A stretch of 64,000 nt of DNA from Escherichia phage N2. The notes below the pieces were generated by a model that was not told where the DNA came from, made no database searches, and saw only the letters and a list, made by a program, of their open reading frames with translations. The DNA lies in sequence record ON645936.1, one strand, 5' to 3'. The first letter of the stretch is position 1. Each line of letters begins with the position of its first letter. This document shows positions 4,293 through 58,284 of the stretch, piece by piece. Both the position numbers and the translations under genes were made by a program.

Positions 4293-4329
4293 TTTCGGGA
4301 ATATTATACTCCGGTAATCATAAAGCTAA
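4293..4329 (-). promoter_or_regulatory. possible MotA-box middle promoter upstream of topoisomerase gene
   Basis: minus strand TTAGCTTTA-N12-TATAAT. Confidence 0.3.
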
Positions 4330-14317: not shown

Positions 14318-14655
14318 TCACAAGATGTAGATGAACAACTAGAATCACAAGAACTTCCACACGAATCGCCCGTCCATACATGAACAGGAACATTAGTGTC
14401 ATATGAATCAGAACTAGACTGTGTATTCTGCGTATTAGATGATGTAGTAGGTGTTGACCAACGCCAAGGATTTTTATAATATTCTTGGGCTTCTTCATAA
14501 GTCATAGTAACTGCTTCTACTGTTCCATCTCCCATATAAACATATTCAACTACAGTTAAAGGAAGATTGTCATTTGAAATAGGAACTACACCTTCTCCGG
14601 GAGTTGTAGAGAAAAAATCCGTAAAGAAACTTTTAAACCAATTAAAGATAAACAT
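14314..14655 (-). CDS. hypothetical protein with Cys/Ser-rich C-terminal tail
   Basis: 113 aa ending [18 protein letters not shown]. Confidence 0.5.
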
Positions 14656-14867
14656 TACAAAAAGCCTCTTTGAAATTCGACTCTTTGAAATCCACCCCAG
14701 TCAGTGTATCGCATTTCAGCATTGAACTCGACTGAACCATCTGCATGCATCATGAATGAATGCGTGACGATATCACAATCCCAGCTTTTCATACCCCATT
14801 TATCAGAGATAGCTTTATCAAGAACCTTCTGGAGGTCTTCATTTGGTTTAATCCAGCGATTTAACAT
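14655..14867 (-). CDS. hypothetical protein
   Basis: 70-aa ORF downstream of promoter 14894..14923. Confidence 0.45.
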   Translation of the reverse strand: MLNRWIKPNEDLQKVLDKAISDKWGMKSWDCDIVTHSFMMHADGSVEFNAEMRYTDWGGFQRVEFQRGFL

Positions 14868-14893
14868 AGTGCTCTCCTCTATAAGATAATTCT

Positions 14894-14923
14894 ATTATAC
14901 CATACTCATTTTGGAAAGTAAAC
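14894..14923 (-). promoter_or_regulatory. sigma70-type early promoter
   Basis: minus strand GTTTACT-N17-TGgTATAAT directly after soc terminator. Confidence 0.55.
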
Positions 14924-14928
14924 CGGTA

Positions 14929-14957
14929 AAATGAAAAAAGGACTCCTTCGGGAGTCC
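14929..14957 (-). terminator. intrinsic terminator after soc
   Basis: GGACUCC-CGAA-GGAGUCC then UUUUUUCAUUUU on minus RNA. Confidence 0.65.
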
Positions 14958-14966
14958 TTGAATTTA

Positions 14967-15212
14967 TTAACCACCAGTTACTTTCCACAAATCTTCGTTT
15001 GCGGCAATCCATTCAGTACGTTGATTTTCTTCATATACTGTAGAATATGCTGCTTTTTCTGAAGGGAATGTCTGGTAATGAGCGCCAGAAATTTTGTGAA
15101 CGTCAGAATAAAGAGGGAAAGCTACAGAAATTTCCTTTCCTTCAATTTTCTTATTTCCATCTAATTTCTGCTCAAACGTTTTGATATTAACATAACCGCG
15201 AGTACTAGCCAT
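14967..15212 (-). CDS. soc: small outer capsid protein Soc
   Basis: 81 aa starting MASTRGYVNIKTFEQ; late promoter upstream, terminator downstream. Confidence 0.85.
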   Translation of the reverse strand: MASTRGYVNIKTFEQKLDGNKKIEGKEISVAFPLYSDVHKISGAHYQTFPSEKAAYSTVYEENQRTEWIAANEDLWKVTGG

Positions 15213-15242: not shown

Positions 15243-15250
15243 TATTTATA
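15243..15250 (-). promoter_or_regulatory. late promoter upstream of soc
   Basis: exact TATAAATA on minus strand about 30 nt before soc ATG. Confidence 0.6.
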
Positions 15251-15920
15251 CATCTTCTTTTCTGAATAAGTAAATTAAATTCTTAAGAGCTGAACTTGTT
15301 ACATCATATTTTCCTTTAAGCGCCTTTACAACCGGGCCTGTTGCTGGTTTACCTAAAGAAACCCATAACTCGTGTATTTCGCTTTTAAGTGGTTCATGCC
15401 AATGCGGTGCTTTTCTTTGCGCCCTTGAAGTTCCTTCTGAAATCTTTTTATTTCCGCCATTTGAATAAAACTTTTTCATTACTTCAGATTGCCGAGCTTT
15501 TCGTTCTGCTCTATTTTGGGCTATACGTTGTGAATTCTTCATCCGAGTTTTTGTTTCAGGGTTGTTTAATCTAAGTTTATGTTCTAATCGTTGTTGCTCA
15601 GTCCATTTTCTTCCTTCTCCACCCTGACCACCAGGAGAAATATTAATGCAAGTATCTGGGTGTTTACGTTTTAATGCAGATATTAGCTCGCGTTCAACTT
15701 CATATGATTTTTCTCTAGAACCATGGCATTTTGACCAACGTATTTTATAATTAAAACCATACTTACGATATATGTTCCATAGTATTTTGCCTGAACCCGG
15801 ATATTTATCATCATATGGATTTACAATAAATGATTCATGCTTCCCAGCGTACCAAAAGACGCCTTTCGGCGTCCTAACTTTTACTATATATGTTCTATAA
15901 AATTTTTGTTTAATACCCAT
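15246..15920 (-). CDS. segF: GIY-YIG homing endonuclease (SegF-like)
   Basis: 224 aa from ATG at 15920; YIVKV...FWYAGKH motif; between 56 and soc. Confidence 0.6.
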   Translation of the reverse strand: MGIKQKFYRTYIVKVRTPKGVFWYAGKHESFIVNPYDDKYPGSGKILWNIYRKYGFNYKIRWSKCHGSREKSYEVERELISALKRKHPDTCINISPGGQGGEGRKWTEQQRLEHKLRLNNPETKTRMKNSQRIAQNRAERKARQSEVMKKFYSNGGNKKISEGTSRAQRKAPHWHEPLKSEIHELWVSLGKPATGPVVKALKGKYDVTSSALKNLIYLFRKEDV

Positions 15921-16425
15921 TATCTTGACGTTCAAAATTATGTTTATTTTTCAAATAATAAAGTTTAAAAATTTCTTCCGCATTCATTCCAAGGCCAGCA
16001 AACATATTTAATACGAAATGAAATATATCCACAAGCTCAAATTTAATTTCGAGCTGATCTTCTGGGGACATTTCATCAATGCGTTTTTCTTGCGCTTCAA
16101 TATAACGTGCTTTCCATTTTTTCCAAACTGCCGATGCATCTTTTTCACCACGTGACATTTCACCAAGAGAAGTCAGAAGTTCGCGGAATTCATCATCAAT
16201 ACAGTCTTTTTGTTCACGCATCCAAGAAACAACATCACCGGCAGTTTCTAATTTATCTGGATGATAGCAGTATTCGCGGTCATTTGCTAAACGAACCTGC
16301 AAAGATTTCTGCATATCAAGCATAACCTGCAGCGGGTCTTTTTCATCACCGAGAATATCCCAGTATTCATTTTGAGCTTTATCAGCGCCTTCGATCAGAT
16401 GACTACATTCGTTGAAATGTGGCAT
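15910..16425 (-). CDS. 56: dCTP/dUTP pyrophosphatase
   Basis: 171-aa ORF, size and position of T4 gp56. Confidence 0.8.
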   Translation of the reverse strand: MPHFNECSHLIEGADKAQNEYWDILGDEKDPLQVMLDMQKSLQVRLANDREYCYHPDKLETAGDVVSWMREQKDCIDDEFRELLTSLGEMSRGEKDASAVWKKWKARYIEAQEKRIDEMSPEDQLEIKFELVDIFHFVLNMFAGLGMNAEEIFKLYYLKNKHNFERQDNGY

Positions 16426-24556: not shown

Positions 24557-24586
24557 ATAGTACCATAAAGGAACCGGGATGTAAAC
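24557..24586 (-). promoter_or_regulatory. sigma70-type early promoter with conserved leader
   Basis: minus strand GTTTACA-N17-TGgTACTAT. Confidence 0.5.
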
Positions 24587-51505: not shown

Positions 51506-51535
51506 ATAGTACCACAGAGGAACAGTCTTGTAAAC
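51506..51535 (-). promoter_or_regulatory. sigma70-type early promoter with conserved leader
   Basis: minus strand GTTTACA-N17-TGgTACTAT. Confidence 0.5.
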
Positions 51536-57431: not shown

Positions 57432-57650
57432 TTAAACTCTCGTATTATGATCGATAATTTCATCAAGAAACATATCTAAAGCTTCTAAAGCATTATCAAC
57501 TTTAGCTTCAAATTCTTCAATACTTGATAAGGCAAAGTTAATGCGTTCCTCATCTGCTTTGCGAATTAAAGCTACCAATTCTTTAATTTTATCTGCTTGT
57601 TCGATACTAATCATTATTCCACCACATATGAAAGAGAGAACATTGCACAC
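57432..57650 (-). CDS. hypothetical protein
   Basis: 72-aa ORF. Confidence 0.4.
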
Positions 57651-57802
57651 GCCATATGAGTTGCAGCTTCATCACACATATCATAACGTTTCTTAAGAAG
57701 TTCTACAAGTTCTTCACTAGTAACTTCATCCATGTCGACGAAAAAATCACCATTAATGATAACGTAGATATTTCCTTCTTGATTAAGTGCTTCAATTTTC
57801 AT
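57614..57802 (-). CDS. hypothetical protein
   Basis: start reassigned to ATG 57802 with GAGGAG SD, downstream of promoter. Confidence 0.4.
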
Positions 57803-57830: not shown

Positions 57831-57860
57831 ATAGTACCACGGCTCAAACGAAAAGTAAAC
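57831..57860 (-). promoter_or_regulatory. sigma70-type early promoter
   Basis: minus strand GTTTACT-N17-TGgTACTAT directly after terminator. Confidence 0.5.
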
Positions 57861-57870
57861 CGGTAAAATG

Positions 57871-57892
57871 AAAAAAGTCTCCCGAAGGAGAC
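57871..57892 (-). terminator. intrinsic terminator
   Basis: GUCUCC-UUCG-GGAGAC then UUUUUUCAUUUU on minus RNA. Confidence 0.65.
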
Positions 57893-57897
57893 TAATG

Positions 57898-58284
57898 TTA
57901 TTCGAGGGAAAGAAGATATTTACTCTGGTAAAACATTCCAGTAATATCATCTATCGTGCTTTGGATGGCTGGAGGCATTTCTTTATAAATGCTGTTAGAT
58001 TGGTCTAGTATGCGATCAATCATTTTAATTGTGTCGGTAGGAAGTTTACTGGCATCTGGAATTGAAGGCGTGTATTTTCTACCAGAATACCCCAAATACT
58101 GCTCACCAAATTTATCAATCAAATCTGGCAACTCAGAGAAAATAAAATCGTATGCTTTGTGTCTAGCATAACTTTTAGTTTCAAAATGTGCAGAATGAAA
58201 ATAAGCTTGTGCAGCCATTAATAAACCTAAGTATTCATCTGCCTTTGAAGGTTTTCCACTTTGTGAAAAGTCGCTGAATTTCAT
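57898..58284 (-). CDS. hypothetical protein
   Basis: 128-aa ORF coupled to rI; terminator downstream. Confidence 0.5.

Follow-up and report, generated by a model that had tools for sequence, protein, structure and literature searches.

The DNA analysed here, a 64,000-nt stretch of Escherichia phage N2 (ON645936.1) that we refer to as the window, comes from a T4-like phage (Tequatrovirus), and its synteny with T4 extends over roughly 1-64 kb. It holds two exact plus-strand copies of a 26-nt block, AAAGTAAACCGGTAAAATGAAAAAAG, at 14915-14940 (copy A) and 57852-57877 (copy B), 43 kb apart. Copy A lies between soc and mrh.2 (site A), and copy B lies between rI.-1 and a small downstream ORF (site B). 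Nearly all genes in both neighbourhoods are on the minus strand, and the element is therefore to be read on that strand. Read in this direction, both sites present the same order of features: a stop codon, a GC-rich hairpin, T6, CATTTTACCG, GTTTAC, 18 nt, a −10 element with TGn in front, a Shine-Dalgarno sequence and an ATG.

The upstream gene at site A is soc, which encodes the small outer capsid protein (14967-15212, minus strand; translation ending in ...EDLWKVTGG) and is annotated at the orthologous place in T4, RB14 and T2. Its stop codon (14967-14969) is followed 7 nt downstream by the hairpin AAGGACTCC-CGAA-GGAGTCCTT (14938-14959, minus strand), a terminator-like match with nine pairs and a T tail. 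The core of this hairpin (14940-14957) reads GGACTCC-TTCG-GGAGTCC on the plus strand and GGACTCC-CGAA-GGAGTCC on the minus strand, and as minus-strand RNA it is predicted to fold with −14.2 kcal/mol (z −4.1). Copy A itself, again on the minus strand, consists of C-TTTTTT (T tract at 14934-14939, about −52 to −47 of the promoter), CATTTTACCG, the −35 element GTTTAC (14918-14923) and TTT. The promoter spans 14894-14923, with TATAAT (14894-14899) placed 18 nt after GTTTAC; it scores 10/12 in the promoter scan with TG present, and the TGG that precedes TATAAT makes an extended −10. In the T4 record M30001, the orthologous GTTTAC...TATAAT upstream of mrh.2 coincides exactly with a 30-nt feature named 'early promoter 14.95', and fPS-2 carries a terminator annotated at the place orthologous to the hairpin, with a 'predicted early promoter' beside it. 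The first gene that this promoter would serve is mrh.2 (14655-14867, minus strand), annotated under that name in RB14 and T2, with its GAGGAG Shine-Dalgarno sequence at about 14874-14879 and then the ATG.

Site B is built in the same way. The rI.-1 ORF (57898-58284, minus strand; annotated as rI.-1 in RB14 and ime09 under the match) ends at a stop codon (57898-57900) located 4 nt upstream of a second terminator-like hairpin, AGTCTCC-TTCG-GGAGACT (57876-57893, minus strand; AGTCTCC-CGAA-GGAGACT on the plus strand), with a predicted fold of −10.8 kcal/mol (z −4.2) as minus-strand RNA. Within copy B the T run occupies 57871-57876 and the −35 GTTTAC occupies 57855-57860; the promoter as read from the sequence (57831-57860) continues through 18 nt to TACTAT (57831-57836) with TGG in front. 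A stricter generic sigma-70 scan called the site A promoter and did not accept the TACTAT −10 of site B. A terminator and a promoter are annotated at the orthologous place in Lutter and fPS-2. Downstream lie the GAGGAG Shine-Dalgarno sequence and ATG of a 62-codon ORF (MKIEALNQ..., 57614-57802, minus strand), at a place where T4 and Lutter have a 189-nt CDS. By its position on the T4 map we take this ORF to be mobD.5-like. Compared with T4, Lutter and three IMG/VR relatives, the window differs by a short insertion or replacement at about 57500-57528, inside the small ORF at 57432-57650.

Both sites show the features expected of an intrinsic terminator, namely stems of 7-9 bp with 4-5 GC pairs, a T6 tail and a stop codon 4-7 nt upstream. 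They likewise show those of a T4-type early promoter, with an exact −35 GTTTAC (TTTACW) and, 17 nt from TTTACW (18 nt from GTTTAC), a −10 of the form TAYWAT with TGn. T4 early promoters are very strong promoters with UP, −35, TGn as well as −10 sequences, used by the unmodified host RNA polymerase immediately post infection (PMC2988021). The UP element of strong sigma-70 promoters is A/T-rich and lies at −40 to −60 (PMC2988021). In this region the two sites carry T6 at about −52 to −47, which is the position of the distal UP subsite, and a T-rich segment at −46 to −40, with a GC hairpin rather than an A tract further upstream. The role of the block as an UP element is uncertain because its proximal part, CATTTTACCG, is T-rich, unlike the A-rich proximal UP subsite. 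From the sequence and from the annotations of relatives, some of which are themselves predictions, we infer that transcription terminates and initiates at both sites.

The anatomy and the annotations in relatives agree with the first-pass annotation, which had read the block on the minus strand as supplying both the U-run of a terminator and the GTTTAC −35 of the next promoter. The same annotation had described a different GC-rich hairpin next to each copy, and the sequence at both sites bears this out, with the qualification that the two hairpins are related as well as different, sharing a CTCC-loop-GGAG core. Compared with the T4 promoter P_E 14.95 and soc terminator, and with the T4 rI.-1/mobD.5 pair, the two sites occupy orthologous positions with the same flanking genes and the same layout. 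The 26-nt repeat is thus the common core of two already-described T4 terminator/early-promoter junctions; it is real, and it represents a known class of element at known T4 loci rather than a novel type. A limited literature search found no genome-wide maps of T4 start sites and terminators.

The identity of the two 26-mers withstands a direct search. Across the whole window, no further match to AAAGTAAACCGGTAAAATGAAAAAAG is found on either strand with up to three mismatches, and none appeared in 100 dinucleotide-preserving shuffles. Many copies genome-wide would have marked the block as a generic promoter consensus, and the repeat search places it at two positions only. Eighteen minus-strand early promoters of the window were listed and their 153 pairs compared over the 26 positions of the block. 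The sites A and B form the only pair at 26/26 and have the longest in-register shared run. That this identity merely mirrors the strong T4 early-promoter consensus, with no specific relationship between the two sites, would fit the unusual conservation of T4 early promoters outside −35 and −10 (PMC2988021) and the recurrence of GTTTAC, of TGG before −10 and of TTTTTTCA in other promoters of the window. However, the promoter pairs have a median identity of 14/26, with 22/26 for the second-best pair, most of the other 16 promoters carry ...TTCACAAAGTT rather than CATTTTACCG before GTTTAC, and a third copy is absent in about 500 genomes. These observations already largely refute the consensus reading, which we consider very improbable.

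The A/B pair nevertheless stands at the top of a distribution instead of apart from it. In-register runs of 24, 19, 18, 18, 17 and 16 nt are shared by other promoter pairs, and over 95 nt the A/B cassettes rank second of the 153 pairs, the cassettes at 24586 and 53673 being more alike. When both cassettes were searched against the whole window by permissive BLAST, only trivial short matches came up besides the A/B pair and a common −10/leader block. The −10/leader half of site B, GTGGTACTATACAACTATC, also occurs in the promoters at 51535 and 53673, members of a second sub-family, which makes site B a mosaic that combines two sub-families. On sequence comparison, the early-promoter cassettes of the window form sub-families of related, partly mosaic sequences, of which A/B is one. 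We further observe that the promoters at 51535, 53673, 57860 and 24586 have TGGTACTATACAACTATC in common at the −10/leader and make up this second early-promoter sub-family, and that the most similar cassette pair, 24586 and 53673 (positions of the −35 G, minus strand), has AAAAATTTTTTCACAAAA upstream in both members.

Some other primary function for the block, as the start of a small plus-strand ORF or as a binding site for a phage protein, was also considered. Both copies hold ATGAAAAAAG on the plus strand, and the ATG at 14931 or 57868 opens ORFs of 43 and 46 aa, respectively, that run antisense to soc and rI.-1. Beyond a common MKK these ORFs are unrelated, neither is preceded by a Shine-Dalgarno sequence, and their antisense course takes them through conserved genes; as translated products they were rejected, the peptides being unrelated and lacking a ribosome-binding site. 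An Rfam search of the whole window at gathering thresholds gave no matches, and a terminator plus a promoter fully explain the anatomy, which leaves another primary function scarcely credible. Three further candidates were also rejected: a MotA-box middle promoter, as the −30 position lacks a TGCTT motif; a target of homing endonucleases, as nothing ties the block to cleavage even though segF and mobD genes lie nearby; and a viable deletion between the direct repeats, as the interval holds the DNA polymerase, helicase, primase and clamp-loader genes.

The distribution of the two cassettes among related phages bears on the age of the pair. Both 2-kb neighbourhoods match hundreds of Tequatrovirus genomes at 92-98% identity. 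At site B, T4 has the exact 26-mer, and the block is identical in every genome read. At site A, T4 carries CTTTTTTCATTT-AAAT-GGTTTACTTT, which matches the block at 23/26 positions, the three differences lying inside a 4-nt patch that reads TACC in the window. This patch is TACC also in RB14, TACT in SH-1 and in Dhakavirus VR5, AAAT in T4, fPS-2 and 11B, AAAC in T6, TAT in RB32, TTGC in T2 and TAAG in AnYang. VR5, which belongs to another genus, has 24/26 of the block at site A, and the block sequence is therefore old at this locus. Sequences were read from about a dozen genomes, and the allele frequencies that follow are BLAST identity bands rather than alignments. In the phage collection, the site B query finds a second strong match in 272 of 503 records, 136 of 515 records are identical to the 44-nt site A segment of the window, and 110 records are identical to its site A over 97 nt. 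No genome among about 500 Tequatrovirus records has more than two places at the BLAST thresholds used. IMG/VR was scanned with the exact 26-mer and with a degenerate 4-nt patch, and both scans returned the same seven loci on five contigs; Tequatrovirus contigs are too few there to give allele frequencies.

By these counts, a near-identical pair appears in about half of the roughly 500 Tequatrovirus genomes and the TACC-type allele in an estimated quarter to a half of the genus. The comparisons indicate that the 26/26 identity is a common allele state (TACC at site A) and no event private to this genome, that both cassettes stand at fixed orthologous loci across the genus, and that no recent duplication in this genome lies behind them. 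A recent ectopic gene conversion or duplication, in which a short patch of site B was copied onto site A, or the reverse, in this lineage, is an alternative that we regard as unlikely. The differences between sites A and B of T4 are clustered in the 4-nt patch (AAAT versus TACC), as would follow from one short conversion tract; site B is invariant in the sequences read while site A is polymorphic; and all four combinations of soc haplotype and patch allele are found, a pattern that takes either recombination or recurrent change inside some 55 nt. On the other hand, the VR5 outgroup and SH-1 both have TACT at site A, a single step away from TACC, so that TACY may be ancestral and AAAT derived. 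The patch alleles form a graded series (TACC, TACT, AAAC, AAAT, TAT, TTGC and TAAG), the identity between the two sites of the window stops sharply at both ends of the block, and the frequency of the TACC-type allele argues against a lineage-specific event. The cassettes at A and B may share a common descent, and much the same picture would result if A had later been copied to B or if conversion had recurred.

The first-pass annotation had suggested duplication or recombination of a regulatory cassette, and had asked whether the copies mark recombination breakpoints among related phages. Recent duplication in this genome does not hold, and recombination finds support at site A and not at site B. 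The segment from 14837 to about 14975 (~140 nt) is 85-100% identical between the window and T4, RB14, T2 and fPS-2; it reaches from the first ten mrh.2 codons through promoter and terminator to the soc stop codon. The rest of mrh.2 (14672-14836) has 40-78% nucleotide identity, and the protein is 59% identical to T4 Mrh.2. On the other side of the segment, RB14 and fPS-2 have soc alleles whose divergence sets in at the stop codon. The four combinations of soc type and patch allele are represented by T4, the window, RB14 and fPS-2, and exchange or recurrent change must therefore have taken place within about 55 nt. Gene content beyond soc varies, with a segF-like endonuclease in the window and T4 and small ORFs in RB14 and T2. 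Site A thus has the appearance of a recombination junction, with a conserved island set between soc and mrh.2 alleles that diverge. Around site B, all genomes read show flanks of 90-100% identity, the full 2 kb is covered by 495 of 502 records, and the flank comparison gives no sign of a breakpoint in the genomes read.

Several smaller observations concern the surroundings of site A. The divergent mrh.2 allele (14672-14836) has flanks that are 95-100% identical on both sides, and the closest full match is phage vB_EcoM-PM105 (97.3% over 2 kb). Between soc and gene 56, at the position of segF (formerly gene 69), the window has a 229-aa homing-endonuclease-like ORF (15246-15935, minus strand), and at this position RB14 and T2 have small unrelated ORFs. 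Two IMG/VR contigs, L006 and L008, join an RB14-type soc 3' end (...ACAGAGAAATAGGTGGTTAA) to the same site A cassette and are another instance of different soc alleles on one cassette.

The hairpins vary in a manner of their own. In T4, the 12-mer CTCCTTCGGGAG of the hairpin core is common to both sites on the same strand, and the two T4 cassettes also have two further bases in common after the block. At site A of the window, the loop (14947-14950) reads CGAA on the minus strand, whereas T4, RB14, T2, T6 and fPS-2 have its exact reverse complement, TTCG, with the stem unchanged. One inversion, a hairpin 'flip', seems a better account of this difference than four substitutions. The flipped allele is common, since the 110 phage records that match site A over 97 nt do so at 97/97 positions.

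A class of elements with this composition has been described in T4-like phages. PeSLs (promoter-early stem-loops) are recurrent cassettes of a stem-loop and an early promoter that occur at indels and replacements in RB49 and phi1 (Arbiol et al., 2010, PMC2839356), and they have also been reported for the T4/PST pair, with a promoter of the form TTTACW-N17-TAYWAT (Comeau et al., 2014, PMC4122927; defined in the legend of Fig. 3). Both sites have the full PeSL composition of stem-loop, early promoter, Shine-Dalgarno sequence and start codon, and both resemble PeSLs in their promoter form; the site B promoter, with its TACTAT, fits the PST/T4 PeSL consensus (PMC4122927). Repetition with conserved sequence in one genome is seen as well, both in the rank of the A/B pair and in the 16-24-nt runs of the others. 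As for adjacency to replacements, site A lies between divergent soc and mrh.2 alleles and in this resembles published PeSLs. The differences are that no rearrangement is seen near site B in the genomes sampled, where the flanks are uniform, and that 43 kb separate the A/B copies. The mini-circle mechanism in the literature, with circles detected by inverse PCR, depends on PeSLs that are neighbours (PMC2839356, PMC4122927), and mini-circle excision is inapplicable to the A/B pair because essential replication genes lie in the 43 kb between the copies. An inter-genome crossover or a short conversion is the only form of recombination relevant to this pair.

Taken with the anatomy, these comparisons make it likely, in our assessment, that the two copies are the cores of related terminator-to-early-promoter cassettes of the PeSL class, related from long ago and maintained by selection. 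A rho-independent terminator, made of the GC hairpin and U6, would end minus-strand transcripts coming from soc or rI.-1, and 16-17 bases further on a strong sigma-70 early promoter would restart transcription into mrh.2 or the mobD.5-like ORF, with the host sigma-70 polymerase starting about 7 nt past the −10. The activity of these elements and any dual use of the T tract we infer. The T tract would, by a weaker argument, serve both as the terminator tail and as an UP-like upstream element of the promoter, and this dual use is probable because the hairpin-less early promoters at 24586 and 53673 carry TTTTTTCA at the same place. The TACC allele at site A of the window would simply coincide by chance with what site B invariably has. 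Recombination or short-patch conversion may have contributed now and then, and the data need none.

A stronger proposal is that the terminator and promoter are functionally coupled rather than merely adjacent, with the T tract read as terminator tail and as upstream promoter element alike, and this we consider doubtful. Promoter-coupled terminators are reported to be widespread in bacteria, where the next start follows the transcript end at a distance of about 8-11 bp (Fletcher et al., bioRxiv 2026, 10.64898/2026.08.19.745784). The sites described here are similar in that a terminator overlaps the next promoter on the same strand and a T tract is proposed to serve both. In the system of Fletcher et al., however, the −35 is provided by the DNA of the stem and the T tract precedes the −10, whereas the sites here are arranged more loosely: their T tract lies at about −52 to −47, and the promoter has its own −35 and −10. 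Any coupling here would thus act through the upstream (UP-like) region. If coupling were to hold, polymerase at the early promoter would alter the termination of soc and rI.-1 transcripts, and the reverse; such a dual code, perhaps together with ectopic conversion, would explain an identity of 26-28 nt across 43 kb in about half of the genus.

The interpretation as PeSL-class cassettes leaves the current understanding of T4 transcription unchallenged. Its value for annotation is that it marks two transcription-unit boundaries in a T4-like genome. The soc and mrh.2 locus also provides a clean example of the PeSL idea, in which cassettes act as linkers where neighbouring alleles are exchanged between phages, and the compact geometry, with a T tract within the upstream region of a promoter, makes both sites convenient test cases for terminator-promoter coupling. 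Finally, a separate family of hairpins, GGGC-CGAA-GCCC on the plus strand and thus with UUCG loops on the minus strand, occurs at 4327, 27458, 29405, 36524 and 40160; these hairpins are probably further minus-strand terminators.
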